DNA from: Elusimicrobiota bacterium
GTDB lineage: Bacteria; Elusimicrobiota; Elusimicrobia; Elusimicrobiales; UBA9959
Length of the DNA: 64,000 bases
Direction: 5' to 3'
NCBI GenBank assembly: GCA_027340875.1
Contig: DAIENX010000007.1
Location: 1 to 64,000 of the forward strand
Below, one piece after another: positions 12,195 through 47,809 of the stretch; position 1 is the first letter of the stretch; the number at the start of each line of letters is the position of its first letter. A program made the position numbers and the translations under genes. The notes under the pieces were generated by a model that was not told the origin of the DNA, did not search any database, and was given only the letters and a program-made list of their open reading frames with translations.

Positions 12195-12212
12195 TACAGG
12201 CCGCCGCCTAAA

Positions 12213-19528: not shown

Positions 19529-19552
19529 TTCTCCTCCTGGCGCTCCGGGACT

Positions 19553-22373: not shown

Positions 22374-22377
22374 GTTC

Positions 22378-24141: not shown

Positions 24142-24988
24142 GGCGCCTCCGTGCCACCAGGAATTTAACCATCTCCACCGCGTAAGACTTTACGAAGCCG
24201 GGGCAGGAGACGGAATGCGGGCAGGCGGAGCAGACCCCGGCGGGCTTCACCCGCAGGCGCGGCTGGAAATCGGCCCCGGAGACCTCCCCGGCGGGGCAGG
24301 GCAGGCCCAGCTTCTCCGCCACGCAGAGCGGCACCGCCCCGCCGGCAGGCAGCATGCACCTGAGCCCCAGCTTCCGGCGGAAGCCGGCTATGGCGGAAAG
24401 CGAGCGCAGCGCGGCGGCCGCGTCGGGTATCAGCCAGCGCCTGGCCCGGACGCGCGCGCAGTCCGGCTCCAGCAGAGAAAGCACGATGTCCTTAACTCCG
24501 TATTTCTTCCTCAGTTCGCGCACCAGGGCAGGCGCGGAGGACTGGTTGCCGGAATAGACCAGGAAATTGACGGCGGTCCTTATCCCGGCGCGGCGCAGGT
24601 TCTTCAGCGCGGCTTCCTTTTTGGCGAAGCCGCCTTTTACCCCGGCGAGAGCGTCGTATCTCTCCGGGGCCGATTCGAAGAAGCTGAGCACGACCTCGTC
24701 CAGGCCCGCCCCGGCCAGCTCCTCCAGGTAATCGGCGGAGGCCAGCCTGAGGCCGTTCGTCAGCAGCGCCACGTACTTGCCGCCCTTCTTCAGCCGGCGC
24801 ACGAGGCCGGGCAGGCCGGGATGCAGCGTGGGCTCGCCGCCGGTCACGTTCACCCGCGCGGGCCCGGGCTCGGCGGCCAGGGCGGCGGCCTGCCTGGCGG
24901 CCCCGTCCTTCCGCTTCACGCCGCCGGCGTCGCAGAACAGGCAGTCCTGGTTGCAGCCGCAGGAAAGTACCAGGCGGGAGGTCTTCAT
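24134..24988 (-). CDS. Radical SAM protein, HxsC-like
   Basis: CNQDCLFC, TGGEPTL, PLC, CSACPHSVSCPG; ATGA overlap. Confidence 0.88.
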   Translation of the reverse strand: MKTSRLVLSCGCNQDCLFCDAGGVKRKDGAARQAAALAAEPGPARVNVTGGEPTLHPGLPGLVRRLKKGGKYVALLTNGLRLASADYLEELAGAGLDEVVLSFFESAPERYDALAGVKGGFAKKEAALKNLRRAGIRTAVNFLVYSGNQSSAPALVRELRKKYGVKDIVLSLLEPDCARVRARRWLIPDAAAALRSLSAIAGFRRKLGLRCMLPAGGAVPLCVAEKLGLPCPAGEVSGADFQPRLRVKPAGVCSACPHSVSCPGFVKSYAVEMVKFLVARRRRG

Positions 24989-25935
24989 TTCGCTCTCTTC
25001 CGCCGCTTCGGCCCCGCCCCCGCGGCGGCGGGGCGGCACGGAACGAACTCGCCCCAGCCGAAAAGCTCCGGGTACTCGCGCCAGGGACCCTCGCACCTGT
25101 CGAAGAAGGCGCAGGACGGACACTTCGGCCCCTTGGCCTTGCCCTCGTTCAGCCTGTATTTACCGAAATCCTCTATCACGGTCCCCGCGTCGAAGATCTT
25201 GGTGCGCGGGATTATCGTCTCGGCCACGTAGTCCTCGTAGCCGCCCATGAAGCAGTACGGTATGGCCTCGGTCATAACGCGCAGGCCGGCGGCAAGGCCG
25301 ATGTCCAGGCCGCGCTTCACGAAAGGCTCCATCACGGTCTTCTTCGGGATCAGCCACCTGGCGTTCGCGGCGGCGCTGCCGAGTATGTGCACGAAGGCGA
25401 ACTGGAACTGGTCCACGCCCAGCTTGGCCAGCAGCGTGGCTATGGCCGGCAGGTCCTGCGTGTTGGGTTTGGTTATCACGGTGTTGGTGATGACCCGGAA
25501 CCCCGCCTTCTTCAGGTTCATTATCCCGGTCACGGTCTCGCGGAACGAGCCCCCGGCTCCGGTGAGGTAGTCGTGTATCTCCGCCCTGGACCCGTGCAGG
25601 GCCGGCGAGGCCTCGGTGGCCCCTGCCGCCGCCGCCTCGCGGCAGAACTCGGGGTAGCGGAACATGCGGCCGTTGCTCTGGATCTGGATGTTGCGGTAGC
25701 CGGTCTTCTTCGCCTCGCGCACTATCTGCAGGAATTCCTTGTGCAGCGTGGGCTCGCCGCCGGTCAGGACCAGCTCCCGGCCGCCGTCCTCGTAGCCGCG
25801 CCTCAGCTCCCTGCGCAGCTGCGCCATGTCCTTGGGCTGGTGCTTCTCCCGCTTCTTGCCCTGCACGCAGAACACGCACATGTTGTTGCAGCCGAAGGCG
25901 ACTTTAAGGTCTATCCGCTTCAGGGGTCCGTTCAT
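24985..25935 (-). CDS. Radical SAM protein, HxsC-like
   Basis: CNNMCVFC, TGGEPTL, QSNGRM, PYC, CPSCAFFDRCEG; ATGA overlap. Confidence 0.9.
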   Translation of the reverse strand: MNGPLKRIDLKVAFGCNNMCVFCVQGKKREKHQPKDMAQLRRELRRGYEDGGRELVLTGGEPTLHKEFLQIVREAKKTGYRNIQIQSNGRMFRYPEFCREAAAAGATEASPALHGSRAEIHDYLTGAGGSFRETVTGIMNLKKAGFRVITNTVITKPNTQDLPAIATLLAKLGVDQFQFAFVHILGSAAANARWLIPKKTVMEPFVKRGLDIGLAAGLRVMTEAIPYCFMGGYEDYVAETIIPRTKIFDAGTVIEDFGKYRLNEGKAKGPKCPSCAFFDRCEGPWREYPELFGWGEFVPCRPAAAGAGPKRRKRAK

Positions 25936-27143
25936 ATGAGGCTCCACAGGCGCCGCAGGGCGATCTTGGCCAGCAGCAGCACGTTGCCGCCGGACAGCGC
26001 CGCGGTGACGGCCAGGCCGGCGACTATCCAGAAGGCGAAGGGGCGCACGTGGAAGACCGGCACCCCCACGTCGTCCTTCGAATCGGCGGCTTTGCTCCTG
26101 ACGTATTCCTTGAGGCCCTCCAGCTGTTCGGCGGTCAGGCCGTCGCGGTACCGGTCGAAGCCGTACTTCTCCGCCAGCTCCGGCTCGGCCTCGCGCAGCT
26201 GCTGCAGGTATTCCTCGGAGATTATCATGCCCGGCGTTAGGCTGTCGAGACAGACGCGGCGCGTGCCGGACAGCGCCAGGTGCCGGTCGGCGACGGCGTA
26301 CAAAACGCCCCTGAACAGCATGAACTCCATGCTCATCACGAATCCGTACAGCACCAGCCTGGCGAGGCTGAGCGTCTCGGGATTAAGCCTGGACGCGACG
26401 GCCAGGAGCAGCAGGCCGGCGAGCAGCGCGCGCGGACCGGCCTTACCGGCCAGCCAGCCGACGCGCCCGCCCAGCGCGAACATCAGGATGAAGAGGATGT
26501 TGCTGTTCACCTGGAAGCCGCCGGTATGCGCCGAGTTCCAGGCCGAGACGAAGCTGAACAGCAGAGCGCTGAAGGAGAAGGTCACCAGCCGGCCCGGCTC
26601 CCTCGCCAGTCCGGCGGCGGCGGCGCGGGCGGCCGCCCAGCTCTTCCCGAAGGCTTTGATGGTCCCGTCCGAGAAGAGCAGGCCGAGCTGCTCCCTGGAC
26701 ATCTGCGCGAAATATACCGCCGCGGGCGGGACGAAGATGTTGACCAGCAGCGACAGCACCAGCGCCACCGGCGCCCAGCTGGCGTACGAGATGACCATCG
26801 GTAGCGCCGCGCAGAGCAGGGCGAAGAGCTTGGCGTCGCCCGCCGGCCACACCGCGGTCTTCCAAAGTATTATCCCAGCCAGCAGGCCGAGGGCCGCGTT
26901 CTCCAGCAGCACCAGGTAGTACCTGTAAACGAAGAACGGCTCCCAGAATGGGCCGTGCAGCCCGTACCTGGTCCCGGCCACGCTGACGGACAGCATGACC
27001 GCGGCGGCGGCCAGGACGGCAGCCCCGCCGCGGGCCAGGCTCCTGTTGCGTATCTTGCCGCAAAGGTCGTCCTCCCTGACCACCCTGAGCAGCAGGACGG
27101 TCAGGTACAGCGTCAGCAGCAGGCTTACTATCGGCAGGTACAT
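25932..27143 (-). CDS. A24-family (prepilin/preflagellin) GxGD-type membrane aspartic peptidase
   Basis: Multi-TM; EDD..GKIRN first-Asp region, PAGDAKL second-Asp motif, C-terminal PFAFWI as in FlaK-like peptidases. Confidence 0.75.
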   Translation of the reverse strand: MYLPIVSLLLTLYLTVLLLRVVREDDLCGKIRNRSLARGGAAVLAAAAVMLSVSVAGTRYGLHGPFWEPFFVYRYYLVLLENAALGLLAGIILWKTAVWPAGDAKLFALLCAALPMVISYASWAPVALVLSLLVNIFVPPAAVYFAQMSREQLGLLFSDGTIKAFGKSWAAARAAAAGLAREPGRLVTFSFSALLFSFVSAWNSAHTGGFQVNSNILFILMFALGGRVGWLAGKAGPRALLAGLLLLAVASRLNPETLSLARLVLYGFVMSMEFMLFRGVLYAVADRHLALSGTRRVCLDSLTPGMIISEEYLQQLREAEPELAEKYGFDRYRDGLTAEQLEGLKEYVRSKAADSKDDVGVPVFHVRPFAFWIVAGLAVTAALSGGNVLLLAKIALRRLWSLI

Positions 27144-27147
27144 AGTT

Positions 27148-28077
27148 CTAGCGTCCGAGTATCCTGGCCGCTATAGCGGCCGGGTCCGAGAACATCGGGC
27201 ACAGCTCCTCCGACTTGTAGTACACGTCCTTCTTATAGAGCCCGGCGCAGATCCTCTTCAGCGTGCAGGCGGCGCAGCGCCCGCCCTTGCCGTAGCTCCA
27301 GTCCTCCTGCACTATGAGCTCCTTCTCGTCCAGGAAATACGTGAGCCGGTTCTCGCCCTTCACTATCTTCCTGGTCTCCGTGGAGCAGTGCGCGAACTCG
27401 GCCATGAAGCAGAGCGGCACGCGCTCCACGCGGAAAGTCCGCCCGCCGGCCTCGAGGAAACGCATCGCGGCGGCCAGCGAGGCCTCGAAGCCGGACAGCG
27501 TGGGTATGGTGTCCGGGAACTCCACCACGCGCTCCATGCCCGGGTCCATATTGTTGAAGACGAAATGCGAGATGAACGGGTACTTCGCGCAGAGGAAGCG
27601 CGCGGCCAGGTGCAGATGGCCGGAGTTGTAGCGGTTGATGACGGTGTTCACGTTCACCGAAACGCCCAGCTTGGCGGCGTTGTCCAGGGTACTGAAGAGG
27701 TTCGTCAGCGAGCCCTTGGTCCTGGAAAGGTGCTCCTGCAGCGCCGGCACGTGAGAATGTATCGAGACGTGCAGATGTCTCAGCCCGGCGCGGCAGAGCC
27801 TGGAGAAATACTTCAAGTCCGCCGTGCGCTGGCCGTTGGTTACTATCCGCGGCTCCATGCCGAGCGTCCGCGCGTAGGCTATGAAGTCCGGCAGCTTGGG
27901 ATGCAGCGTCGGCTCGCCGCCGGTGAAGATTATGCCGGAGGCCTTCCGCTTCGCGTAGTCGCGCATCATAGCGCCGGCCTTTTCCGCGCTTATCACGCTG
28001 CCGTTGGAGGGATTGGAGCAGAACCGGCAGTTCTGGTTGCATTCCCTGGTAAGCTGCAGATAATAAAGCTTCGCCAT
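27148..28077 (-). CDS. Radical SAM protein, HxsC-like
   Basis: CNQNCRFC, TGGEPTL, VPLC, CAACTLKRICAG. Confidence 0.9.
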   Translation of the reverse strand: MAKLYYLQLTRECNQNCRFCSNPSNGSVISAEKAGAMMRDYAKRKASGIIFTGGEPTLHPKLPDFIAYARTLGMEPRIVTNGQRTADLKYFSRLCRAGLRHLHVSIHSHVPALQEHLSRTKGSLTNLFSTLDNAAKLGVSVNVNTVINRYNSGHLHLAARFLCAKYPFISHFVFNNMDPGMERVVEFPDTIPTLSGFEASLAAAMRFLEAGGRTFRVERVPLCFMAEFAHCSTETRKIVKGENRLTYFLDEKELIVQEDWSYGKGGRCAACTLKRICAGLYKKDVYYKSEELCPMFSDPAAIAARILGR

Positions 28078-28079
28078 AG

Positions 28080-28994
28080 TTATAACGTCCCGAGCCCGCT
28101 GACGCCGTGGATCTCGAGGTACTCCGGCCAGACCCCGCCGCAGTAATCCCTGACCCGGCAGCCGGAGCAGAGCGGCGGGAACACCTTGCCCGCGTCCGAC
28201 CGGCGGCTGGTCCTGCCGAGGGCCGCCTCCACGCACCTCTCCGTGCGCTCGTGCCAGCCGCCCACGCAGAGCGGCAGGCCGCAGACTGGATTATTGACCA
28301 CCAGCCCCTTTTTTTCCGCCAGCGAGAGCGCCGCCTCCACGTAAGGGGACAGCGCCGCGTAATCGGGCACCAGGCGCGGATCGGCCTTGGCGCGCCCCCG
28401 CGGCTGCACCACGGACAGCGAGACCGTCCTGACGGCCGGGAAGCGCCTGGAAACGAAATCGATGTACCTGGCGGCGCCGCGGTAGTTGCGCGAGCACAGC
28501 ACCGGGTTCAGTATCACCTCGAGCCCGCAGGCCAGCAAATTGTCTATCCCTTTCAGGCAGAGGGCATGGGAGCCGGGGACTCCGGTTATACCGTCGTGCA
28601 CGCGCGCCGAATGGCTGTGCAGCGAGACGAAGGCGCTCGTCGCCCCGGCCCTGGCCGCGGCGGCCGCCAGCGCCCGGTCCGCGAAGCAGACGGCGTTGGT
28701 CTGCACGTCCACCTTCGCGGCCTTCTTCGCCCGGTAAAGCTTTATCAGGGCGGGCAGGCCCTTGTAGAGCCCGGGCTCCCCGCCGCTTATGGAGATGCGC
28801 GCTCCCGGCCTGACGCCGGCCAGCAGGGCCGACCTCATCGCGTTACGCAGCGCGCGGTCGTCGCGCCGCCGCTCCTCCGGCCGGCGGTCCACGTTGCAGA
28901 ACACGCAGTTCTCGTTGCAGGCGTAGCCGAGCCTCACCAGTTCGTACGGGATGTCCTCCCTGGGGTCGTAGCCTTTCTTAGCCTTAGAGCGCAT
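28080..28994 (-). CDS. Radical SAM protein, HxsC-like
   Basis: CNENCVFC, SGGEP, LPLC, CSGCRVRDYCGG. Confidence 0.88.
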   Translation of the reverse strand: MRSKAKKGYDPREDIPYELVRLGYACNENCVFCNVDRRPEERRRDDRALRNAMRSALLAGVRPGARISISGGEPGLYKGLPALIKLYRAKKAAKVDVQTNAVCFADRALAAAAARAGATSAFVSLHSHSARVHDGITGVPGSHALCLKGIDNLLACGLEVILNPVLCSRNYRGAARYIDFVSRRFPAVRTVSLSVVQPRGRAKADPRLVPDYAALSPYVEAALSLAEKKGLVVNNPVCGLPLCVGGWHERTERCVEAALGRTSRRSDAGKVFPPLCSGCRVRDYCGGVWPEYLEIHGVSGLGTL

Positions 28995-29871
28995 GGAATT
29001 CCGAGTCCCCGTAGGTTTCAAGATATTTGGCGTACACCCCGCCGCAGACCGCCAGCTTCGAACAGGCCCGGCAGCAGCGCAGGGCCGTCTTTTCCCGGTG
29101 GCCGTCCACGGAGCGGCCGCGGCGGCGCAGCATCTCGGTGCGCCGCATCGCGAACTCGCAGGCGCCCGCCGGCACGCGCGGCAGGGCGGCGCAGAGCGGC
29201 ACGTCCCAGAGGCGCAGGCTTCGCGGCCAGCGGCCGCGCGCGGGCGCCAGCTCCTCCACCAGCCTGGAATACCTGACCGAGAGCTTTTTCCAGTCCTTCA
29301 GCGCCCGGCCGAACGGCAGCAGTCCGTGGAAGACGATGTTCCTGAGGCCGCGCAGCGAGAGGAAGAAGTCCCGCAGCTCCCCGAGGCCGTCTATGTTCAG
29401 CGCGTTGACCGTGGCGTTCACCGAGACCTGCACCGGCGAGCCCTTCGGCCGCAGCGAAAGCAGGTTCGACAGGCCGCGCACGGTCTGCGCCCAGCTTCCC
29501 GCCGCCCCCGTTATGGCGTCATGCACTTCCGGTCTGGCCCCGTGCAGCGAGACTATCACCTCGCTGGCGCCCGAGGCCAGCAGTTTGGAGCAGTAATCCC
29601 TGTAGGCCAGCATCCTGCCGTTGGTTATGACGGAGATGCCGCTGCAGCCCAGCCGCGCGGCCTCCCCTATCAGGGCCGGCAGGTCCGGGTTCAGCGTGGG
29701 CTCTCCGGAGGTGAAGACCAGCCGGCGCCCCCTCGCGGGCGCCCGAAGCCCGTCCACGGCGCCGCCGCCCCGGCGGCGGCCGCGGCCGGAGACGTCGGTG
29801 CAGAAGACGCAGTTATTGTTGCACTCCGAAGAGGAGGCCGCGTAGAGGACTTTCCCTGCCGCCTTAGTCAT
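28984..29871 (-). CDS. Radical SAM protein, HxsC-like
   Basis: CNNNCVFC, SGEPTL, TNGRM, VPLC, CRACSKLAVCGG; ATGA overlap. Confidence 0.88.
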   Translation of the reverse strand: MTKAAGKVLYAASSSECNNNCVFCTDVSGRGRRRGGGAVDGLRAPARGRRLVFTSGEPTLNPDLPALIGEAARLGCSGISVITNGRMLAYRDYCSKLLASGASEVIVSLHGARPEVHDAITGAAGSWAQTVRGLSNLLSLRPKGSPVQVSVNATVNALNIDGLGELRDFFLSLRGLRNIVFHGLLPFGRALKDWKKLSVRYSRLVEELAPARGRWPRSLRLWDVPLCAALPRVPAGACEFAMRRTEMLRRRGRSVDGHREKTALRCCRACSKLAVCGGVYAKYLETYGDSEFHAL

Positions 29872-31157
29872 GCGCTCCTCGCCGCGTTGAACATCCGCTG
29901 CACCAGGTTCACGGCTCCGGAGAAGCCCAGGAAAGGCTCCGGCCGCAGCGCGTGGTACCTGTAGGACGGGAAACCCAGGTCCATGCCGGGCAGCCCCAGC
30001 AGGGCCGAGCGCCGGCCTACGCTGCTGGATACCAGCAGGTCGCAGCGCCCGCCGGAGAAAAGCTCCTCTATGGCCCGCCCGTAGGCGAGCACGGGGAAAT
30101 CCCTCAGCACCGGTCTCCCCGGGAAAGCCGCCTCGGCCGAGGCCCATTTGCCTCCGGAGCAGGTCAGGAACACTCCGGCCACGCCCATGCCCAGCTCGGC
30201 CGCGAAGGCGCAGACCGCCTTTCCCAGGTACGGGTCGCCGGTGAAGCAGAGCCTTTTCCCGGCCAGCGCGCCGCCCACCGCGGTGCGGGCCAGCGAATGG
30301 GCCCCGGAGAGCTCCTCGGCTATGATCGCGTCCGCTTTCACGGCGGAGATTCCGGCGGCGCCGGCGGCGGCTTTCAGCCAGGCCGCCGAGGCGGCCAGCC
30401 CCAGCGGCAGCTCCAGCTCCAGCAGCCTGGCGCCGGTCCTGCGGGCCAGCGTCGCGGCCGCGCCGCGCGCGTAAGGCAGGGAGATGATCAGGCCGGCCTG
30501 CTCCGCTTCCTTCAGGGAGGCGTAATCGCTCCCTCCGGGCCAGGCGCAGACCAGGTCCAGCCCGGCCAGCGCCAGCATGCGGCGCAGCTCCGCGAGGTTG
30601 CCGGTCTGGTCGCCCTCGTTGCGGTCCATGAAATGCCCCACTACGGCGACCTTGCCGCGCCGGCCGGCGCCCTTCTTCAGCGGCATGTCCGCGGCCATCC
30701 TTTCCAGCGCCAGCGCGTAGCCGTCCAGGTAGTCGAAGTCCAGCGCGTTGGCCGAGGCGCTCACCACCCTGGTGCCGCGCCGCCCCGTCAGCGAGGCGGC
30801 CAGCTTCCCGTAATCCCTCCCGGTGAGCGTCATGACCGGCAGCGAGGAGAGCAGCACCACGCCCGCGCGGCCGCACAGCGCGTCGGCGCGGGCCTCGGCG
30901 CCGGAGCTGTCGCCGGCTATTATCTCCCCGGCGTGGGAACCGGTATGCAGCACGCGGCTGTCGCCGCGGCAGTCCAGCAGCGTGGAGAACAGGTCGTGGG
31001 AGCCGTGCACGCACTCGGCCTTGCGCGTCACGCAGTCCGTGCCGTCCACCACCGCGTAGGCGTCCGAGACGGCGTTGACGGCGAGGTACAGACCCGTCAG
31101 GAAGGACGGCGTGCAGCTCTCTCCCCTGTCCGGGGTATCAGTTCTCTTTTCTGCCAT
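29868..31157 (-). CDS. Nitrogenase component 1-like (NifK/NifE-type) oxidoreductase subunit
   Basis: C..S.LTG...VVDGTDC, HTG...EIIAG, EGD..GNLAELRRML, LPLGLAASAAWL, PFLGFSG. Confidence 0.8.
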   Translation of the reverse strand: MAEKRTDTPDRGESCTPSFLTGLYLAVNAVSDAYAVVDGTDCVTRKAECVHGSHDLFSTLLDCRGDSRVLHTGSHAGEIIAGDSSGAEARADALCGRAGVVLLSSLPVMTLTGRDYGKLAASLTGRRGTRVVSASANALDFDYLDGYALALERMAADMPLKKGAGRRGKVAVVGHFMDRNEGDQTGNLAELRRMLALAGLDLVCAWPGGSDYASLKEAEQAGLIISLPYARGAAATLARRTGARLLELELPLGLAASAAWLKAAAGAAGISAVKADAIIAEELSGAHSLARTAVGGALAGKRLCFTGDPYLGKAVCAFAAELGMGVAGVFLTCSGGKWASAEAAFPGRPVLRDFPVLAYGRAIEELFSGGRCDLLVSSSVGRRSALLGLPGMDLGFPSYRYHALRPEPFLGFSGAVNLVQRMFNAARSA

Positions 31158-33354
31158 AGCTAGCGAAATCCGACCCGCAGACGGCCAGGATGGTCTCCAG
31201 CGTCCTGCAGGCCCCGGCGAAGCCGGGCCTGAACATGTCCAGCGAGACCTGCGCCTTGCCGGCGTCGGAGACCCGGTAGTCGCAGGAGAAATCGCTCCAG
31301 ACCGCGGAGATCGCCGGGGAAGCCAGCCTTCGGCGCAGCTCGGCCTCTCCGGAGAACGCCGCCGTTCTCATATTGAAGGCGGACAGCGGGCCGGAGAACC
31401 TCTTCAGGGCCTTCTTCTCCGGGGCGTATACCAGCAGCTCCAGGCCGAAGCCGGCCTCCGCCAGGAAGGCGGCCGGCGGCACCCCGGCGGAGCGGGCCGG
31501 CGTGAATATCCGCTCCAGGTCCGCCTCGCCGGCGACGAAAGCTATCCTCTTGCCGGCCGCGCGCGCCTTCAGCGCCTTCCATTCCCCAGCGCTGGCGGCC
31601 ATCGCCGCCCGAACGGTACCGGCCGCCGCCTTGGAGCGGCCGGCCAGCGCGGCCGCCTCGAGCAGCCAGGCGGCCGTGGCGGAAAATCCGTAGGGCGAGG
31701 GCGGGCGCCTGAGACGCTTCTTCCAGCGCCCGCTGAAAGCGGCCTCCAGCCTGTCGTAGATGAAAGAATCGCTGAGCAGGGCGCTGCCGGCCGACCGCAG
31801 GGCCTCGAGGGACTCCCCGTCGTATTCCGGCAGCAGCCAGAACGCCTTTACGCCGGCGGAAGAGAGTATGCCGTCCAGCTCCTTAAGGCCGGCCCCGCCG
31901 TAGCCGAGCAGAACGGCAGCGTTGGCGGGCAGCCGGAAGCGGCGCCGGCCGTCCCGCCTGGCGTAGGCGCGGAAGAAGCCCAGCAGCTCGCCGGGCACGG
32001 AGCAGCCGTCCAGGCAGGTGGAGCTGACCACCACCGGCACGCCGCTGGCCTTCTCGGCCTCGCCGGCCAGCTTCCGCACGTCCTCGCCCATAGCGTAAGG
32101 TACGCAGCCGTTGGTCATGAAGATATAATCCGGCCTTCCTCCGGCCAGGTCCGCGGCGATATCCCTTATGCGGCCGCCGCTGCCGAGTATCACTTCCCCT
32201 GTGCCCAGCGCGCTGGAGCTCCTGGTGGAGCCGGCTTCCGGGTGCAGCTCGCTGCCGGGCAGCAGGCTGGCGGGACCGCGCAGGAACGGGACCTTCTCGC
32301 TCTCCTCCAGCCGCTCCTGGCTGTAGGCGCATTCCCTGTCCTCGTGGGCCAGGAAAGCCTGCCGCCCGGTGTAGCGTACCAGCCCGGTGCCGGAGAAGAC
32401 GGCGTCCGAGAAGAAGCGGCGCCAGCCGTCGCCGGCGCCCGAGGGCGGCCTGGCGGGCGAGGAGATCTTGAAGGACGCCCCGCAGGCCTCCGGCGCGTGG
32501 CAGGCAGCGGGCACGTCGGGCGGGGCGGCCGGAAGCACGCGCGGCTTCTTCCCGCGGCCGGAGAGCAGCGGCAGCAGTATCCTGCCGTCCACCGGCCGCG
32601 GCAGGGAGCCGGCGGCATCGGAAGCGTCCAGGCCGGCCTTTATCCTCCTGACCGCCGCGGCGAAAGGCGAGCGCGGGGCCAGGCGCACCACCGCGGCCCC
32701 GGCGGCTTCGGCCTCCCTGACCGCCGGGTCCAAAGGACAGCGGGCCAGTATGCCGGCCTTTATCAGCGCGGCGAACTTGTCCACGGCGCCGCCGCGGCCG
32801 CCGTCCGCGCCGTTGGCCACCAGCCCCATCAGGCCGGCGCCGCTGCCGGCGTGCACGGTCATCGCGCGGGCTATGTTGTTGGCGGCGTAGAGTGACATCA
32901 GGTCTTCCGAGACCACTATCAGCACCTTGCGCCCGAAGCCTTTTCTCAGCGGCACGGCGAAGCCGCCGCAGACTATGTCGCCCAGCACGTCGAAGATCAC
33001 CGCGTCGTAGTCGGCGGCCACCTTCTCGCGGGCGGATTCCAGCAGCTCGAAGGTCTTCAGCAGGCCCATGCCGGCGCAACCCTCTCCCGGAGCGGGGCCG
33101 CCGGCCTCCAGGCAGTCCACGCCCCTGCCTGTCCTGTAGATCAGCTTCTCCAGCGTCGGGCGGCCGCCGCGCAGCGCCTCCACCACGGTCGGGATGCCCT
33201 CGCCGCCTGTCAGCAGCAGCGCGGAATCGCTCTTCGGGTCGCAGCCCACGTGCAGGACCCGCTTGCCCTCCATGGCGTACAGCTCGCTGAGGTTGGCTGC
33301 TATGGTGGATTTGCCTATCCCGCCCTTGCCCAGGATGACGATGCGCTCAGACAT
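31138..33354 (-). CDS. NifH/BchL-like Fe-S ATPase fused to a degenerate NifD-like module
   Basis: GKGGIGKST, GCDPKSDS, EAGGPAPGEGCAG, DVLGDIVCGGFA, MSLYAANNI; C-terminal EVILG, NGCVPYAMGED, PYGFSATAAWL, GFAG. Confidence 0.88.
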   Translation of the reverse strand: MSERIVILGKGGIGKSTIAANLSELYAMEGKRVLHVGCDPKSDSALLLTGGEGIPTVVEALRGGRPTLEKLIYRTGRGVDCLEAGGPAPGEGCAGMGLLKTFELLESAREKVAADYDAVIFDVLGDIVCGGFAVPLRKGFGRKVLIVVSEDLMSLYAANNIARAMTVHAGSGAGLMGLVANGADGGRGGAVDKFAALIKAGILARCPLDPAVREAEAAGAAVVRLAPRSPFAAAVRRIKAGLDASDAAGSLPRPVDGRILLPLLSGRGKKPRVLPAAPPDVPAACHAPEACGASFKISSPARPPSGAGDGWRRFFSDAVFSGTGLVRYTGRQAFLAHEDRECAYSQERLEESEKVPFLRGPASLLPGSELHPEAGSTRSSSALGTGEVILGSGGRIRDIAADLAGGRPDYIFMTNGCVPYAMGEDVRKLAGEAEKASGVPVVVSSTCLDGCSVPGELLGFFRAYARRDGRRRFRLPANAAVLLGYGGAGLKELDGILSSAGVKAFWLLPEYDGESLEALRSAGSALLSDSFIYDRLEAAFSGRWKKRLRRPPSPYGFSATAAWLLEAAALAGRSKAAAGTVRAAMAASAGEWKALKARAAGKRIAFVAGEADLERIFTPARSAGVPPAAFLAEAGFGLELLVYAPEKKALKRFSGPLSAFNMRTAAFSGEAELRRRLASPAISAVWSDFSCDYRVSDAGKAQVSLDMFRPGFAGACRTLETILAVCGSDFASYGRKEN

Positions 33355-34366
33355 GTCCCACCGCCTCTCCCGCGGCCGGCCGGGCGCGCAGTATCCGGGC
33401 CGCGGCGGCCGCGGGGATGGGGCGCAGTTCGCCGTCGCCGAACCTGTCGAGGTAGGCCCCGAAGACCCCGGCGCAGCGGTCCGCCAGCGCGCAGCCCGAG
33501 CAGCGCTCCGTCCTCGTCCGCTTCAGCGGCGGGACCACGCTCTTCTTAACCGAGAGCACGTTCTCCTTCAGGTAGGAGCGCCCGCGCTCCAGCACGAGCC
33601 GCGGGGAGAAGAGCAGGTCGTTGGAGAAAGGGGCCAGCGGGCCCAGCGCGCAGAAAGGGGCCCCGGAGACGACCAGGCGGGCGCCGTTGGCGCGTATGGT
33701 CCCGGCGGCTGAACGCACGGCGCGCGCGAAGTCCGGCAGCCTCACGGTCAGGCTCCCGTAGGAGGAGCGCACGTTCCCCCACGGTATCAGCTGCGACATC
33801 ATGTAGACCCCCGGCCGGCCGCGGGAGAAGACGTACTTCGCTATGTCCGCCGTTCTCCCGGAGTTGAGGGAGCAGACCACGGTGTGGCACATGAACAGCT
33901 TGAGCTTCCCGAAGCGTTCCACGTTCGAAAAGACCTTTTCGACCGTGGAGAAGGCGGACGGCATCCGCGTGACGGCGCGCGCCAGTCCCTCTTCGTTCCA
34001 GTGCACAGAGAGGCAGAGTTCGTCGATGTCCGGCAGCAGCCGTGCCGCCGCCGCGGGGTCGGCCAGTCCCGTGCCGTCGGTGGTGACCTGCACCGAGTAG
34101 CCCAGCAGCTTGGCTATGCGCAGTATGCGCCCGAACTGCGGATGCACGGTGGGCTCCCCGCCCAGCAGCGTCAGGTGCCCGGCGCCGCCGCTCCGGAGCT
34201 TCTTCATTATCGAGCAGGCCTCCGCGAGCGGCATGAAGCCGCCGCCGGAGCGCAGGCTGCGCGCCTCGCAGCAGAAGACGCAGCGGCGGCGGCAGACCTT
34301 GGAGATCCGCAGCTCGGCCCGCTCCCCGGCGGCGCCGGGGGCGCTCAGTAGGTCCTCTCCGTGCAT
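33347..34366 (-). CDS. Radical SAM protein, HxsC-like
   Basis: CRRRCVFC, LGGEPT, APFC, CSGCALADRCAG; start approximate. Confidence 0.85.
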   Translation of the reverse strand: MHGEDLLSAPGAAGERAELRISKVCRRRCVFCCEARSLRSGGGFMPLAEACSIMKKLRSGGAGHLTLLGGEPTVHPQFGRILRIAKLLGYSVQVTTDGTGLADPAAAARLLPDIDELCLSVHWNEEGLARAVTRMPSAFSTVEKVFSNVERFGKLKLFMCHTVVCSLNSGRTADIAKYVFSRGRPGVYMMSQLIPWGNVRSSYGSLTVRLPDFARAVRSAAGTIRANGARLVVSGAPFCALGPLAPFSNDLLFSPRLVLERGRSYLKENVLSVKKSVVPPLKRTRTERCSGCALADRCAGVFGAYLDRFGDGELRPIPAAAAARILRARPAAGEAVGHV

Positions 34367-35076
34367 ATGTTGTACTTCACGTAATTGGGCGCGCGGTCCT
34401 CGCGCACCCGGCTGTCCACGGCCCGCTGCTTCCGCGGCCTGGCCCCGTCCGGCCTGAGCGCGGCGTAGTCCACGTGCGTGTCCGTCTCGTTCTCCTTGAG
34501 GTCCCAGACCGCGCATTTCAGCCCGAGCGCCATCATCCCGGAGACGGTCTCCTTTATCCTGCCCTGGTTGGCCTTCAGGCGCAGCGTGTGCATCTCTATC
34601 CTAGTGCCGGGAAAGGACTTTATGTTCTTTATGGCCTTCAGCAGGGCCGCGTAGCTGCCTTTCTTCCTGGTCACGGCGTCGTGCACGGCCGCGTCCGGCC
34701 CGTAGACCGGCAGCAGGAAGGCGTTGACCCCGGCCGCGACCAGCGCGGCCGTCAGCCGGCGGCTGCGCAGCTTGACGCCGTTCGACATCAGCTCTATATA
34801 GGCGAAGCCTTCCTTCACTCCCATCCTGACCACGGACTCCAGCAGCCACGCGGGGGCCATCGTGGGCTCGTCGCCGCCGAGGCAGAGCCGCCTGACTCCG
34901 CGCCGGCGGAGCACCCGCATCAGCGCGAGGAAGCGTATCAGCACCTCGCGCCACCGCTCCTCGGTGAAGGTGAAGGAGGTCTTGTGCGGGTGCCTGTTCC
35001 GCTGGCAGAAGACGCAGTCGATGTCGCAGCCGAACGGGAACGCCAGCAGCAGCTTGTCCTCCTTCCTGGCGTTCAT
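34345..35076 (-). CDS. Short radical SAM protein without the C-terminal Cys motif
   Basis: CDIDCVFC, GGDEPT, MSNG, HDAVT; ATGA overlap. Confidence 0.8.
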   Translation of the reverse strand: MNARKEDKLLLAFPFGCDIDCVFCQRNRHPHKTSFTFTEERWREVLIRFLALMRVLRRRGVRRLCLGGDEPTMAPAWLLESVVRMGVKEGFAYIELMSNGVKLRSRRLTAALVAAGVNAFLLPVYGPDAAVHDAVTRKKGSYAALLKAIKNIKSFPGTRIEMHTLRLKANQGRIKETVSGMMALGLKCAVWDLKENETDTHVDYAALRPDGARPRKQRAVDSRVREDRAPNYVKYNICTERTY

Positions 35077-36059
35077 GCGGCCTTCACCTCCGTTATGGGA
35101 CGGAAGAAAGGGGCCTGCTCCGGGAAGGCCTCGAGATACTTCCGGAAGATGCCTCCGCAGGAGCGCCGCAGCGCGCAGCGGCCGCAGGACTTCAGATAGA
35201 CGCGCCGCCGCGTCGGGCGCAGCGAGACCGTCTCCTTCAGGCCGGCGCGCCCGCCGGGGAGCGCCGCCCTCTCCACGGTCAGCCGCGGCGAGTAGTAGAG
35301 GTCGTTGGAAAGGTCGTAATGACCGTTCAGCGAACAGGCCGGCGCGCCGAAGAAGCGCAGCGTCACGCCGAACAGCGCGGCCTGCTCCCGCAGGTCCCCT
35401 ATGCGCCGGCCTATGGCGGTGAGGTCCGGAGCCAGCGAGGCGTAGTCCTCGCAGGCGCCGCCCTCCGGGGCCGGGTTGGAGATCATGTAATGCCGGACGA
35501 ACCCAGAGCGGGAGACCAGGCGCAGGATGTCCGAGACCAGCTTGAAGTTCTTTTTGACGGCCACGGTGTTGACCATCAGGAACAGCCTGCCGCCGCCGGC
35601 CTTGCCCAGGTTGTCCAGCGCGGCCATGGCGTCGTCGAAGCTGCCCTTCCTGCCGGTCAGCGCGTCGTGTATCTTGGCCGTAGGTCCGTGGCAGGAGAGC
35701 ATGGCCTCGTCCAGCAGCGGCGCGGTACGGCGGACGAAAGCGGGATCGGCGAAGGCGAGGCCGTTGGTGGTGACGCTGGTCCTGAACCCAAGCGCCCTGG
35801 CCGCACCGAGGGCGGCCGGCAGCGCGGCGCACAACGACGGCTCTCCTCCGGTGAAAGTGACGTGGGAGAAGCCGGCCCTGCGTTTCTCGCGCAGGATGCC
35901 TGCTATCTCCGACCCCGTCAGGTCCAGCGAGCCGAACCGGCGCAGCCTGTTCCGCTCGCTGCAGAACAGACAGCTGTTCTCGCAGGTGTAGGAAACGTGT
36001 ATCTCCAGCCGCTCCACCGCGGCTTTCTTCGCTCCAGCGCCGTGTACCGTTCGGCTCAT
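35073..36059 (-). CDS. Radical SAM protein, HxsC-like
   Basis: CENSCLFC, TGGEPS, TTNG, APAC, CGRCALRRSCGG; ATGA overlap. Confidence 0.88.
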   Translation of the reverse strand: MSRTVHGAGAKKAAVERLEIHVSYTCENSCLFCSERNRLRRFGSLDLTGSEIAGILREKRRAGFSHVTFTGGEPSLCAALPAALGAARALGFRTSVTTNGLAFADPAFVRRTAPLLDEAMLSCHGPTAKIHDALTGRKGSFDDAMAALDNLGKAGGGRLFLMVNTVAVKKNFKLVSDILRLVSRSGFVRHYMISNPAPEGGACEDYASLAPDLTAIGRRIGDLREQAALFGVTLRFFGAPACSLNGHYDLSNDLYYSPRLTVERAALPGGRAGLKETVSLRPTRRRVYLKSCGRCALRRSCGGIFRKYLEAFPEQAPFFRPITEVKAA

Positions 36060-37183
36060 GCGACGCACCTCCCGGAACGGACCGGCTTCAACGCCGAGAA
36101 ACCCCTGGCCATCACGGTCCATATCCTGGCTCCGCGGCAGGCCGGGCCCAGCCGGCAGCGTCGGCAGGCGGAACCCTTCACGGTCAGCCTCTCCGCTATG
36201 AAGAACTCGGCCACCTTCATCAGGCCGGCCCTTGGCGTTATCTTTTTCACGGCCCTCCGCTTCTCCGGCAGGCAGGCCGGCGCCGGGACCGTCTTAAGGG
36301 AACCTTCCGCCCGCAGCAGCTCGAGGTCCGAGCAGAACTGTGCCATCACGCAGGACGCGCACCGCGCCCCCTTGCAGTGCATCTCCTCTCCGGCGTACAG
36401 GAAGGCCTCCAGCGGCCGGCGCATCCCCCGCACCTCGTCCATCAGCTTGCCGGGGTGCTGTATATACCGCTCGTTGCCCTCCAGCACTGCGGCGGGGAAG
36501 CGGTTCGTCCAGACGTGGGCGTTGACGGATTCGGAGAAGCGGAACACCTTTTCCAGCACCTTCCTCTTGGAAGCCGGGTCATAGGAAAGTTTCTTCCAGT
36601 TCTCCCACGCCCTGCCGAAAGGTATCAGGTTCAGCAGGTCGTACTCGTCCACGCCGAGGCGGTGCAGCAGGCCGACTATCTCGCGGACGGAGTCGGCGTT
36701 AAGCCTGTTCACCACGATGTCGCTGCTGACTATCAGGCCCGGCACCTTCTTGGCGTTGGCGATGGCCAGCAGGGTCTGCGCGAAAGCGCCGGGGACCCCG
36801 ACCAGCGCGTCGTGCTGCCCGGAGGTGGCCCCGTGCACGGAGAACGTTATCTCGGTGAGCCCGGCGGCCACAGCGCGCTTCAGAAAGCCATCGTAGCAGA
36901 ACATCCGCCCGTTGCTGATGGCCTGCACGTGGGTATAGCCGAGCTTCCTCGCCTTCGCCACTATGGCCGTGAATTTGGGGTGTATCGTGGGCTCTCCGCC
37001 GCTCAGCACCACCCGGCGGCAGCCCTCCGCCCGGCCCCGCCTCAGGTCGGCCTCTATCTCTCCGAGCGGCAGATGTTCGCCGCAGATGGAGTCCGCGTCC
37101 AGACAGAAAAGGCAGCGGTTGTTGCAGGCCCTGGTCAGCCTGACCCATTTCCGCTTTTCCGGGGCGGCGGTTCTTTCCGTCAT
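36056..37183 (-). CDS. Radical SAM protein, HxsC-like, two C-terminal Cys motifs
   Basis: CNNRCLFC, SGGEPT, SNGRM, CASCVMAQFC, CRRCRLGPACRG. Confidence 0.9.
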   Translation of the reverse strand: MTERTAAPEKRKWVRLTRACNNRCLFCLDADSICGEHLPLGEIEADLRRGRAEGCRRVVLSGGEPTIHPKFTAIVAKARKLGYTHVQAISNGRMFCYDGFLKRAVAAGLTEITFSVHGATSGQHDALVGVPGAFAQTLLAIANAKKVPGLIVSSDIVVNRLNADSVREIVGLLHRLGVDEYDLLNLIPFGRAWENWKKLSYDPASKRKVLEKVFRFSESVNAHVWTNRFPAAVLEGNERYIQHPGKLMDEVRGMRRPLEAFLYAGEEMHCKGARCASCVMAQFCSDLELLRAEGSLKTVPAPACLPEKRRAVKKITPRAGLMKVAEFFIAERLTVKGSACRRCRLGPACRGARIWTVMARGFSALKPVRSGRCVA

Positions 37184-37187
37184 AGTT

Positions 37188-38135
37188 CTATCCAAGAAGT
37201 ATCCTCTCTGCCAGCCTGTCCGCGGCCATCCCGCCGGCCACGGCCTTGGCCCCGAAAAGCTTCTTCGCCATGCCGGAGTAATCAGGACGGCGTCCGCTCC
37301 CGGCGCCCAGAGCCTCCAGCCCGCCGGCCAGCATCTGCGCGGCCTGGCCCGGGTCCCTCGCGGCAAGGACGAGGTTGGAGTGATAGCACCTGCCGTCAGT
37401 GTCCACCGTGGTCCCGGGATTGAAAAGCGGCACCGGGCCTTCGCGCGAGGCGTTCTCGATGACAACGGCCCCGGAATCGGCCAGTTCCCTGATATGCCTC
37501 AGCGCCCTGGCGAGCTTGGCGAGGGCGGCCGGCGTCCATTCCCGGTAATAGGCCGGCAGGACGTTGACCCTGGGCGGTCGTCCGCGCGAAGCGGCTATCA
37601 CGCGCTTCAGGACCCCGAGCGAAGAAAGCGGGTCGCGCTCGGGCAGCAGCAGGTTCCAGATCAGGTTGGGCAGGGCCGCGAACCTGCGGCTGACGCTCAC
37701 CGAGGAGTTAATGTTCACCTGCACCCACGGCCGGGCCGAGAAATACCGGAGCTTCGCCGCGTCCAGCAGCAGGCCGTTCGTGCCCACCTCCGCGCGGCCG
37801 CGGTAGCCGGCCGCCTCCAGCATGCCTATGCCAGTCCTCACCAGCCCGAAGCGCAGCAGCGGCTCCCCGCCGAAAAACTTGACCGCGCCGCCCCCCAGGG
37901 CGGCGGAACAATACTGCTTTATAGCGCTTTTCAGGACCGCCGCGGGCATGTCCGCCCGCCCGGTCGCGACGGGACATTCGGGGCACGCCGACTGGCAGCG
38001 CCGGGTGAGGATAAGGGTCAGCTGCGGGGCCGGCGCGCCCCCGCGGCAGGCCGGAAGGGCCGAGTTACTGGCCCTTCGCCGGTTCCTTTCCTTTGGTCTG
38101 CTTGCCCTGCGGCTGTACGCCCATCCTCTTGTCAT
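37188..38135 (-). CDS. Radical SAM protein
   Basis: CQSACPEC, FFGGEPLL, GTNGLLL; start codon uncertain. Confidence 0.8.
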   Translation of the reverse strand: MTRGWAYSRRASRPKERNRRRASNSALPACRGGAPAPQLTLILTRRCQSACPECPVATGRADMPAAVLKSAIKQYCSAALGGGAVKFFGGEPLLRFGLVRTGIGMLEAAGYRGRAEVGTNGLLLDAAKLRYFSARPWVQVNINSSVSVSRRFAALPNLIWNLLLPERDPLSSLGVLKRVIAASRGRPPRVNVLPAYYREWTPAALAKLARALRHIRELADSGAVVIENASREGPVPLFNPGTTVDTDGRCYHSNLVLAARDPGQAAQMLAGGLEALGAGSGRRPDYSGMAKKLFGAKAVAGGMAADRLAERILLG

Positions 38136-39114
38136 CTTCAGCCTTCTGCTTTACCATGTCGGCCATTATCTTGTGGCGGAACGAGCTCGTGCAGTAGCCG
38201 GTGGCGAGCTTCTTGGCCAAAGGTGCGCAAACCGACGGGTCCCTGGACTGCAGCACGTGGAGCAGCCATTTCTCGTCCGGGGTGGAATCCCCCCTCACCA
38301 GCGCGGCGCTGAGCTGGCATTCTTTCTTCCGCGGGCCGCTCAGTTTGCCGCAGGCCGCCCGCCCGTTGATGAACAGGAAGTTGGATTCGCAGTTGGGCGG
38401 CAGACCGAGCGAGCGGCACTCCGGGGTCCGCCTCTTCGCGATAGAGTCGGTAATGAACCGACAGAAGTCGGGGCTGGGACGCCCCCCCCTGAACGCGTTG
38501 TTAACGAACTTCTCGCATTTCCCGTCGTTCGTCTTCCTGTTCAGGGCCGAATACATGAAATCGTAGTAATCGGCGGCGAAACAGACCCTCTCCAGGTTCT
38601 GCTGGACGCAGTCGAGACGGCCACCGCTGATAAGCCGGCAGACGCCGTAGTCCAGGAAGAGATCGAGTATAGTCTCATCCTCGGGCATGTTGCTGTTGGT
38701 ATTGAAGAAGAACCGGAAGTTCTTGTCGAAATGCCTGACGATAGCGTCCGGGTTGTCCGAGAAGGCCTTTATACAGTCGCTGTCGGCCGCGTTCACCGGG
38801 ACGTCCTCTGGCTGGGAATAATACCCGCCGGAGGCGCTTTCGTACTGGCCGCTCTGGGGGATATTGCTCTGGGTATCGGTCGACGCCTGGCTGACCAGCG
38901 CGGCGGCGTCCGGAGGAAGCGCCTGGCCGACCTCCTGTTGCTGGGCCGCGGGGTAGGCCGGAGCCGCCGGCTGCTCGATGCCTATCTTCGCGGCGTTCCT
39001 GTCGGTGACCATCTTCAGGGCGAAAAGCACGCCCATCAGCGCCACCAGCAGGCCGATAAGCAGCTTCGGGGACATCGCCCCGGGTCTGTAGCCTTTCCTC
39101 ATCGCGCTCACCAT
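38065..39114 (-). CDS. Membrane-anchored extracytoplasmic Cys-rich protein
   Basis: N-terminal TM, Ala/Pro/Gln linker, Cys-rich domain; start could be 39114, 39102 or 39075. Confidence 0.8.
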   Translation of the reverse strand: MVSAMRKGYRPGAMSPKLLIGLLVALMGVLFALKMVTDRNAAKIGIEQPAAPAYPAAQQQEVGQALPPDAAALVSQASTDTQSNIPQSGQYESASGGYYSQPEDVPVNAADSDCIKAFSDNPDAIVRHFDKNFRFFFNTNSNMPEDETILDLFLDYGVCRLISGGRLDCVQQNLERVCFAADYYDFMYSALNRKTNDGKCEKFVNNAFRGGRPSPDFCRFITDSIAKRRTPECRSLGLPPNCESNFLFINGRAACGKLSGPRKKECQLSAALVRGDSTPDEKWLLHVLQSRDPSVCAPLAKKLATGYCTSSFRHKIMADMVKQKAEDDKRMGVQPQGKQTKGKEPAKGQ

Positions 39115-39404
39115 TGCCCGTGGCTGCCGTGCGAACCGTGCGAACCGTGCGAGCCGTGGCTGCTGTGCGAACCGTGCGAACCGTGCGAGGCGTGACTCAC
39201 GTGGCCCGACGCGTTGCCGCTGCTGTGGAAGTAGTTTGCATGCGCTAGCGCGTCAGCGTGCTCTGTCACCACTCCGACGGCGGTGGCTACCAGTCCGAGG
39301 ACGACCGCGGCCTTGACCACGTCGCTCTTGACTATCTTGCCCTCCTCGCTCGAAAGGAAGCGGGAAAGGTCTACCGACAGTTTCTTTTTCTGTTTTCCGG
39401 CCAT
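39108..39404 (-). CDS. hxsA: His-Xaa-Ser repeat precursor peptide (HxsA-like)
   Basis: 98 aa; nine tandem HxS triplets plus HGQW at the C-terminus; directly downstream of hxsB. Confidence 0.92.
   Translation of the reverse strand: MAGKQKKKLSVDLSRFLSSEEGKIVKSDVVKAAVVLGLVATAVGVVTEHADALAHANYFHSSGNASGHVSHASHGSHGSHSSHGSHGSHGSHGSHGQW
39117..39203. repeat. Coding 9-bp tandem repeat (GTGCGAACC variants) encoding the HxS array
   Basis: Visible 9-nt periodicity with synonymous variation. Confidence 0.85.
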
Positions 39405-39423
39405 ATTTCGCCCCGTTCTCGGT

Positions 39424-41320: not shown

Positions 41321-41339
41321 GCTGATCCTCTAACGCAGT

Positions 41340-47804: not shown

Positions 47805-47809
47805 GCGGC

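Follow-up and report, generated by a model that had tools for sequence, protein, structure and literature searches.

Our analysis of a 64,000-nucleotide stretch of an Elusimicrobiota genome (GenBank assembly GCA_027340875.1, contig DAIENX010000007.1, positions 1 to 64,000; hereafter, the window is this whole stretch) shows that two overlapping genes on its minus strand, nflHD and nflK, encode an enzyme of the published Group VI nitrogenase-like (Nfl) family. One chain joins a NifH-like Fe-protein to a NifD-like component-1 domain, and a NifK-like partner is encoded directly after it. The enzyme is predicted not to fix N2, and its genes are embedded in a 23-gene co-directional operon of the His-Xaa-Ser (Hxs) type, which includes the maturase HxsB, the repeat precursor HxsA4 and 13 further radical S-adenosylmethionine (SAM) paralogues. 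This operon context points to the class of substrate: with a probability that we put slightly above even, NflHD/K is an ATP-driven tailoring reductase that acts on radical-SAM-modified HxsA4 and not on a tetrapyrrole. The enzyme family was already known and the pair itself is a new member of it. A first-pass annotation of the window had not assigned the two genes to this family, and it lacked the decisive context, namely their translational coupling to HxsC-like radical SAM genes in a His-Xaa-Ser operon.

A fused nitrogenase-like reductase of Group VI

The pair corresponds to two minus-strand open reading frames (ORFs) of 738 aa (31138-33354) and 429 aa (29868-31157), which overlap by 20 nt in a window with a G+C content of 59-71%. 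Four features can be delimited along them:

32560..33354, minus strand: NflH (NifH-like Fe-protein) domain, aa 1-265 (Pfam; P-loop GKGGIGKS at aa 9-16; [4Fe-4S] ligands Cys93 and Cys129)
32434..32559, minus strand: flexible Pro/Ala-rich linker, aa 266-307 (sequence and low predicted local distance difference test score, pLDDT)
31141..32433, minus strand: NflD (NifD/BchN-like component-1) domain, aa 308-738 (Pfam Oxidored_nitro, invariant Cys, fold)
29868..31157, minus strand: NflK (NifK/BchB-like partner), 429 aa (Pfam, conservation); its first 20 nt overlap the end of nflHD

In Pfam, aa 4-265 of the 738-aa protein match Fer4_NifH (E 1.5e-65) and aa 379-628 match Oxidored_nitro (54.6 bits, cut-off 28.6; E 1.1e-14), and NflK matches Oxidored_nitro at aa 99-425 (E 5.5e-41). 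Both ORFs and their domains thus bear out the architecture proposed in the first-pass annotation, NifH fused through a Pro/Ala linker to a component-1-like half and accompanied by a NifK-like partner. The motifs named there, an intact P-loop, the GCAG and VCGG Cys motifs, ECAYS and NGCVP...GED, are all in place, with GKGGIGKS starting at aa 9, GCAGMG at 92, VCGG at 128, ECAYS at 341, NGCVP at 415 and GED at 423; in NflK, SSLPVMTLTGRD begins at aa 104. The linker (aa ~266-307), which varies in length and sequence among homologues, coincides with an unstructured stretch of the AlphaFold model (residues 270-307, pLDDT <50).

That model, built on a 25-sequence alignment, has a mean pLDDT of 78.9, with confident NifH and C-terminal domains, and its NifH part matches Fe proteins in Foldseek, such as chain 9fmg_E of methylthio-alkane reductase (MAR; E 1.6e-21, template modelling (TM) score 0.87). 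Because the NifH domain filled the Foldseek list of the whole fusion, the NflD domain was modelled by itself (14 sequences, pLDDT 79.8, predicted TM score 0.80). This second model (range 1-439) resembles MAR chain 9d9u_B (VIA Z 22.2, root-mean-square deviation 4.2 Å over 346 residues), NifD chain 9cje_C (Z 22.0), NifE 3pdi_A (Z 21.2) and BchN chain 9efu_A (Z 19.1, 4.9 Å over 349 residues). The C-terminal half is therefore predicted to be a complete, full-length NifD-like component-1 domain. The Oxidored_nitro fold whose presence there had been set as a check is found both in Pfam (E 1.1e-14) and in the model (Z 19-22 to MarD/K, NifD, NifE and BchN), and the earlier qualification of this half as "degenerate" has to be dropped. 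A sequence search of the Protein Data Bank with NflK gave weak matches to NifK, BchN and MAR, confined to its C-terminal two thirds.

Few residues that could hold metal clusters are conserved. Cys38, Cys93 and Cys129 of the NifH domain, as well as its P-loop, are invariant in 25/25 aligned fusions, and so are two NflD residues, Cys342 (in H-x-D-x-E-C) and Cys417 (in C-x-P-x-x-x-G-D/E-D), which we take by position to be the equivalents of NifD Cys88 and Cys154. Beyond Cys417, these 25 fusions contain no invariant Cys or His that could hold a cofactor resembling the iron-molybdenum cofactor (FeMo-co). For NflK, 262 representatives were collected at E<=1e-30 and conservation was read from 50 of them; Cys42, presumably at the position of NifK Cys95 and BchB Asp36, is the sole invariant Cys (50/50). 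The first-pass annotation had stressed two N-terminal Cys in this partner; Cys42 is one of them, while at the position of the other, Cys15, a Cys is found in fewer than 5 of the 50 representatives. Its further proposal that Pro replaces the expected third ligand Cys holds because the profile-profile alignment of NflD and NflK (hhalign, 99.4% probability, 338 columns) sets NflK Pro106 opposite the invariant NflD Cys417. Three of the six P-cluster positions are thus kept as invariant Cys, two in NflD and one in NflK, and the alignments suggest that the family has three Cys available for one interface cluster, in agreement with a review according to which Group VI retains at most four of the six positions (PMC13474568). 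The replacement of the GCAGRG Arg by Met, also pointed out earlier, is true of the window protein and turns out to be a trait of its small subclade (Met in P0001-P0005, Leu in P0006), the remaining 19 of the 25 aligned fusions keeping an Arg of the GCAGRG/GCGGRA type.

The fusion is no artefact. Its nearest protein, from another genome labelled Elusimicrobia, is also fused (739 aa, 85% identity), and of the 120 top-ranking database clusters listed, 109 have both Pfam domains, among them proteins of Elusimicrobia bacterium GWA2_69_24, RBG_16_66_12 and the cultured myxobacterium Pseudenhygromyxa sp. WMMC2535 (P0094, a fused homologue of 970 aa); both observations contradict an assembly or frameshift error, which the first-pass annotation had set as a check on its own proposal. 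Across Elusimicrobia loci, where fusion counts rest on stop-to-stop ORFs, 15 of the 19 complete H plus D gene sets are fused, the window included, and four are split. An artefact, or a set of decaying relic genes, could be read from these split sets and from the single in-frame TAG inside the H-D linker of one of them (G018:C43, locus L114, 3449-3451), which may reflect a recent split, an error or read-through. Against such an explanation stand the fused orthologue, the two domains in most listed relatives, the invariance of every catalytic motif and the contigs of four public runs from one study, possibly the source of the window itself, which tile the fusion junction with no indel; we consider it extremely improbable. 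Two rare joints in the run contigs were disregarded, their sides measuring only 21 letters. In the loci of Myxococcota NflH is nearly always a separate gene, and the ORF filter confirmed no fused set there, with one 1139-aa ORF (L035) as a candidate.

A distinct lineage with tandem NifH domains is also present among the listed relatives (P0010, 1106 aa; P0100, 583 aa; ~30 similar rows by Pfam). Some of these tandem forms stand alone (~585 aa) and others are fused to Oxidored_nitro (~1080-1100 aa), in which case they would amount to an Fe-protein "dimer" within one chain that is tethered to component 1. Together with the conserved H-D fusion, such NifH-NifH-NifD forms bear on the stoichiometry and the docking cycle of Fe-protein and component 1.

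The pair matches Group VI because it lacks NifB, has divergent D and K proteins devoid of part of the P-cluster Cys and is surrounded by many radical SAM genes. Group VI was defined from Elusimicrobia sequences and has relatives in Gracilibacteria and Myxococcales; it was described as lacking NifB, having up to 13 radical SAM neighbours and acting on a predicted tetrapyrrole substrate (Meheust et al., bioRxiv 10.1101/765248). The window protein comes from the same phylum and shares with this group a NifH-like protein with the P-loop and both cluster Cys (Cys93 and Cys129; Av Cys97 and Cys132) and very divergent D and K proteins without part of the P-cluster Cys and without any FeMo-co ligand; 13 radical SAM paralogues and HxsB accompany it, and NifB and NifEN do not. 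Among the relatives are proteins of genomes named in the group-defining paper (P0089 from GWA2_69_24 and locus L080 from GWF2_62_30). The absence of nifB, nifE and nifN, noted before for the window, extends to the whole genome (2.8 Mb in 112 contigs, 92% complete), which has one NifH-like gene, no PF00148 match other than nflHD and nflK, hence no NifEN, and no NifB (best match 20.5 bits against a cut-off of 343.65).

In NCBIfam, the NifH domain reaches 222 bits for CfbC (cut-off 402), 213 for NifH (394), 177 for BchX (331) and 170 for BchL (345), and the best matches of NflK are to BchN (54 bits, cut-off 324) and BchB, far below cut-off, with NifK at 26.5 (427). All scores lie below their cut-offs and the pair therefore falls in none of the characterised groups. 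In a scan of 80 NifH-like pieces, the Nfl ones reach no NCBIfam family at E<=1e-88, whereas the NifH/CfbC-type ones score 300-410 bits. A search for related loci with general NifH motifs gave 80 loci, of which ~8 are Nfl and the others provided NifH/CfbC-type rows for comparison. A quick tree of NifH domains, which contains one very long row (L075) and no BchL or BchX (Group V) rows, separates 33 Nfl sequences from the NifH- and CfbC-type rows by a branch with support 98, the window being in a well-supported subclade with P0002-P0006 among the Elusimicrobia fusions, which include proteins of genomes from the group-defining paper.

The NifH and NifK scores, the three invariant Cys and the missing NifB and NifEN set the pair apart from the Mo, V and Fe nitrogenases. 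The Group V enzymes, dark-operative protochlorophyllide reductase (DPOR; BchL/BchN/BchB) and chlorophyllide oxidoreductase (COR; BchX/Y/Z), act on a C=C bond in conjugated N-heterocycles; like them, the pair would combine an ATP-dependent Fe-protein with a heteromeric component 1 that has a single [4Fe-4S] cluster at its interface. The DPOR cluster is held by three Cys from BchN and one Asp from BchB, whereas here two Cys of NflD and one of NflK are available; in addition, the scores of the pair for these families are far below cut-off, no chlorophyll genes are present and the Fe-protein is fused. CfbCD, the Ni-sirohydrochlorin a,c-diamide reductive cyclase of Group IV-B, has a simple Fe-S component 1 and a role in cofactor tailoring, and provides the best NCBIfam match of the NifH domain, although well below cut-off; the pair differs from it by the absence of an F430 context and by its conserved NflK, CfbD working without a K subunit (PMC13474568). 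The top structural match of both the NifH and the NflD domains is MAR (MarHDK, Group IV-C; PDB 9fmg, 9d9u), which has nitrogenase-type P- and L-like clusters and requires MarB or NifB (PMC13753814), whereas here NifB is absent and there are only three invariant Cys. The first-pass view of a non-N2-fixing reductase with a shared Fe-S site and a tethered electron donor fits everything testable, because the motifs are intact, NifB and NifEN and any FeMo-co-type ligands are missing, three of six P-cluster Cys remain and the fusion is conserved; what it overlooked is the Group VI identity and the Hxs surroundings.

The His-Xaa-Ser operon and its recurrence with Nfl genes

The operon that contains the pair begins with genes for a 198-aa protein, HxsD, HxsB, HxsA4, a 349-aa protein and five radical SAM proteins, followed by NflHD and NflK; beyond NflK come three radical SAM genes, a membrane protein gene, four radical SAM genes, a gene for a 309-aa protein, one more radical SAM gene and a HEAT-repeat protein gene. 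Its main components are:

18122..41936, minus strand: whole 23-gene co-directional operon, every junction an overlap or a gap of <=24 nt
40859..41320, minus strand: HxsD-like small protein (TIGR03976, 48.2 bits against a cut-off of 50)
39424..40893, minus strand: HxsB radical SAM/SPASM maturase (TIGR03978, full length, 489.4 bits against a cut-off of 370)
39108..39404, minus strand: HxsA4 precursor, 98 aa, candidate substrate (NF038313, 64.4 bits against a cut-off of 55)
33347..34516, minus strand: HxsC-like radical SAM gene directly upstream of nflHD, its stop overlapping the nflHD start by 8 nt (CxxxCxxC)
28984..29871, minus strand: HxsC-like radical SAM gene directly downstream of nflK (CxxxCxxC; HxsC4 123.5 bits, below cut-off)
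25932..27143, minus strand: conserved polytopic membrane protein, a lead towards an A24-like function, with homologues in six other Nfl/Hxs loci

The 23 genes are probably transcribed together. Around the pair, the gene upstream of nflHD (best NCBIfam matches HxsC4 and HxsC, both below cut-off) overlaps its start and the ATG of the gene downstream overlaps the nflK TGA (ATGA). HxsA4 combines a basic N-terminus and the conserved motif FLSSEEGK with a hydrophobic helix, ten His-x-Ser triplets, most of them HGS, and a Trp at its end; its homologues carry 10-27 triplets. The HxsD-like protein has homologues adjoining HxsB in other loci. HxsB and the 13 radical SAM paralogues all retain CxxxCxxC; the best NCBIfam match is HxsC4 or HxsC in 11/13 paralogues and an HxsB/PapB-type maturase in the other two. 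With at most 106 bits against the HxsC cut-off of 267.9 and 126 bits against the HxsC4 cut-off of 500, the HxsC-like paralogues, like HxsD, are to be regarded from their sequences as relatives and not as equivalogs.

The membrane protein (25932..27143) has no Pfam or NCBIfam match, and in Atlas it resembles clusters that partly carry Peptidase_A24 (feature score 0.94-0.95, TM 0.65-0.70). A D-x4-6-I-x-N motif is found in 6/7 copies and GD-x-K-L in 3/7; the window versions, D-x-L-x3-K-I-R-N and A-G-D-A-K-L, presumably have the meaning that they have in A24 aspartyl peptidases. As a lead, this protein may be an A24-type (prepilin-peptidase-like) leader peptidase of HxsA4, and its presence in the operon fits peptide processing. 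The 198-aa protein found nothing above 0.86 in Atlas, and family scans detected no flavodoxin or ferredoxin gene in the operon.

Canonical HXS (HxsD-HxsB-HxsC-HxsA) is an anti-phage system of Pseudomonadota in which radical SAM enzymes modify an SHRSS motif by +8 Da and stimulate the processing of HxsA at its N-terminus (Li et al., Nat Commun 2026, PMC13128918). The window operon has in common with it a full-member HxsB, an HxsD-like protein and a His-x-Ser repeat protein, and here too radical SAM enzymes would mature the repeat protein, with N-terminal processing. It departs from the four-gene D-B-C-A layout, with 23 genes in the order D-B-A-..., a 98-aa HxsA4 with (HGS)n, 13 HxsC-like paralogues, the membrane protein and the nitrogenase-like reductase. 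A defence function received no specific indication from PADLOC, which gave for the window only generic viperin-like radical SAM and HEAT matches.

Nfl and Hxs genes are linked in two phyla. Among 15 distinct Elusimicrobia loci with flanks, the window included and one of them on a contig too short to judge, HxsC-like radical SAM genes flank the Nfl genes in 10 and HxsB in 7; a single scaffold (L018 and L116) has the order HxsD-HxsB-HxsA4-HxsC x2-NflH-NflD-NflK-...-NflHD-NflK-NflHD-NflK. Of 13 Myxococcota loci, 10 have HxsC-like genes and 6 have HxsB in the flanks, and two of the loci (L078 and L122) read HxsD-HxsB-NflH-NflD-NflK-HxsA-HxsC x3. At the genome level, a test on 401 Myxococcota genomes (NflK at E<=1e-25, HxsB above its own cut-off) found NflK in 23 and HxsB in 50, with HxsB in 21/23 NflK-positive and 29/378 NflK-negative genomes, a 2x2 table whose significance is overstated since related genomes are not independent. 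NflK and HxsB lie on one contig, 2-40 kb apart, in 10 of the 21 genomes with both, and HxsB had no match in control genomes (0/14).

In another Elusimicrobia locus (L117, G064:C13, 8000-21000), an HxsA4 with 20 triplets and a tail rich in Cys is preceded by an uninterrupted series of three HxsB-like and four HxsD-like ORFs; this genome carries its Nfl genes on a different contig.

To judge from the literature searched, this association is new. His-Xaa-Ser genes go unmentioned for Group VI in the portions of the preprint and review consulted, the anti-phage study (PMC13128918) mentions no nitrogenase-like genes, NifH or Elusimicrobia, and neither an Nfl enzyme embedded in an expanded His-Xaa-Ser operon, His-Xaa-Ser papers included, nor a link between nitrogenase-like enzymes and radical SAM maturation of ribosomally synthesized and post-translationally modified peptides was found. 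The H-D fusion is likewise absent from the preprint main text, which describes only other proteins as fused, and from the consulted parts of the review, and no mention of it as the main form in Elusimicrobia was found elsewhere in that literature, although the supplementary figures of the preprint may show it.

Proposed substrate and mechanism

In the mechanism that we favour, two NflH domains would form a dimer bridged by a [4Fe-4S] cluster, to which each chain contributes Cys93 and Cys129, and the dimer would bind and hydrolyse MgATP, hydrolysis gating electron transfer. Low-potential electrons would then pass to a single cluster, probably of the [4Fe-4S] type, at the NflD/NflK interface, held by NflD Cys342 and Cys417, NflK Cys42 and a putative fourth ligand, for which the invariant residues Glu341 of NflD and Asp55 of NflK are candidates. 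HxsB, HxsD and the 13 HxsC-like radical SAM enzymes would act on the (His-Gly-Ser)n region of HxsA4, a membrane-anchored peptide, and the interface cluster would subsequently reduce an unsaturated or heteroaromatic intermediate made by them on HxsA4 or on a fragment of it, in parallel with DPOR and CfbCD, which reduce C=C bonds in conjugated N-heterocycles. As there is one H per D, a D2K2 core would own a single H2 dimer, and the linker of ~40 residues would let this dimer serve the two halves in turn.

Several observations weigh against this role in peptide maturation. All characterised nitrogenase-like enzymes act on small molecules (N2, tetrapyrroles, organosulfur compounds) and none on a peptide (PMC13474568), and the same review (Chem Rev 2026), which names NflH/D/K, describes no characterised member of the group. 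The cluster geometry is inferred from alignments only. In the 36 genomes of the window's genus HxsB is nearly universal (33/36, with HxsA4 in 31/36 and true NflHD in 18/36), and co-occurrence is therefore uninformative there; Hxs systems clearly work without Nfl, which is dispensable for many Hxs clusters. Other such observations, bearing on particular alternatives, come from the surroundings of the operon and from other Elusimicrobia loci. The window contains 19 radical SAM genes in 64 kb (12246-45656), 14 in the operon and five outside it:

42255..43733: B12-radical SAM gene (best NCBIfam match BchE, 214 bits against a cut-off of 481)
44169..45656, plus strand: radical SAM gene outside the operon
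16615..18114, plus strand: radical SAM gene outside the operon
13709..15121, minus strand: radical SAM gene outside the operon
12246..13709, minus strand: radical SAM gene with a weak HemN_C domain, outside the operon

The BchE-best and HemN_C genes, together with a HEAT/PBS-lyase-like repeat protein in the window and with HemB and HemC encoded elsewhere in the genome, favour the published view that Group VI Nfl reduces a tetrapyrrole C=C bond for a novel cofactor, the radical SAM neighbours tailoring the macrocycle. This view, put forward in the preprint and repeated in the review (bioRxiv 10.1101/765248; PMC13474568), has parallels in DPOR, COR and CfbCD and agrees with the best NCBIfam matches of NflK (BchN/BchB) and NflH (CfbC), all far below cut-off. 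Nevertheless, the operon contains no tetrapyrrole biosynthesis gene, HemB and HemC are on another contig, and no PF02602 match for HemD was found in the 92%-complete genome. The flanking radical SAM paralogues match HxsC/HxsC4 best in 11 of 13 cases and are of the HxsB/PapB type in the other two, a bona fide HxsB and an HxS-repeat peptide stand at the operon start, and the Hxs linkage is retained in Myxococcota. Moreover, radical SAM enzymes that modify peptides can also contain B12 and HemN_C domains. The genome has one TP_methylase match, and the whole pattern of HemB, HemC, HemD and TP_methylase neither supports nor excludes a tetrapyrrole substrate, which on balance we regard as unlikely.

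A second group of observations concerns Nfl genes away from Hxs genes. Four Elusimicrobia nflHD-nflK pairs (L106-L113: G022:C66, G022:C45, G010:C74 and G033:C19) have no Hxs gene within ~18 kb and neighbour housekeeping genes for IF3/L20/PheRS, purE/purC/purS/purL, aconitase/ATP-citrate lyase and thiolase; in the NflK tree they interleave with linked pairs and form no separate deep subfamily, and the genomes that carry them all have Hxs clusters elsewhere. Locus L036, whose neighbours include B12-radical SAM genes, lacks any Hxs gene within 10 kb. These orphan pairs and this locus would be expected if the radical SAM enzymes and Nfl made a non-peptide small molecule (a lipid, nucleoside or metallocofactor) and HxsA4, HxsB and HxsD were separate or loosely coupled, an idea with which the scores of all HxsC-like paralogues below the HxsC/HxsC4 cut-offs also agree. 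The tight joining of the 23 genes, the position of nfl between hxsB and hxsA in L078 and L122 and the strong genome co-occurrence in Myxococcota argue against it, and we think it distinctly unlikely.

It could also be imagined that NflHD/K has no organic substrate of its own and is an ATP-driven electron pump that reduces the [4Fe-4S] clusters of the radical SAM enzymes, 14 of which, in the operon, need a low-potential reductant, with no flavodoxin or ferredoxin gene visible there. However, a NifH-like protein alone would be enough for that purpose, yet the component-1 pair is conserved, with residues that are invariant throughout the aligned sets and with 262 representatives of NflK, and many Hxs clusters of the same genus have no Nfl; we accordingly give this possibility little credence.

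If the peptide reading is pursued to its full extent, Group VI Nfl would become the first member of the nitrogenase family to act on a ribosomal peptide, saturating at the expense of ATP the histidine-derived heterocycles or cross-links that radical SAM enzymes make along the (His-Gly-Ser)n tail of HxsA4, a proposal to which we attach a little less than even probability. Its product would belong to a new class of heavily tailored membrane-anchored peptides, either a polymer with cofactor-like redox or metal-binding properties or an effector of defence, and through the H-D fusion each D2K2 core would be limited to one Fe-protein dimer. If true, nitrogenase-type ATP-coupled reduction would reach beyond small molecules to peptide maturation, and Group VI Nfl would be tied to the expanded HxS radical SAM clusters, each of these systems being enigmatic. 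HxsA4 provides a concrete, genetically encoded candidate substrate with a defined set of enzymes, so that the function of Group VI becomes directly testable. Should HxsA4 prove not to be the substrate, the pair would still be a correctly filed new member of a known family that has no characterised member.

Neighbouring genes and a related locus

Just upstream of the cluster region, the minus strand of the window encodes a barnase-like ribonuclease with its barstar inhibitor and a PIN-PhoH protein (47418-48421 and 48558-49985). The locus of the 85%-identical orthologue (L097, genome G023) carries at 8774-12605 an extra, unfused NifH-like ORF of 299 aa followed by a large Oxidored_nitro-like ORF; both lie upstream of the gene for the 198-aa protein and HxsD, at the place where the window has the B12-radical SAM gene.

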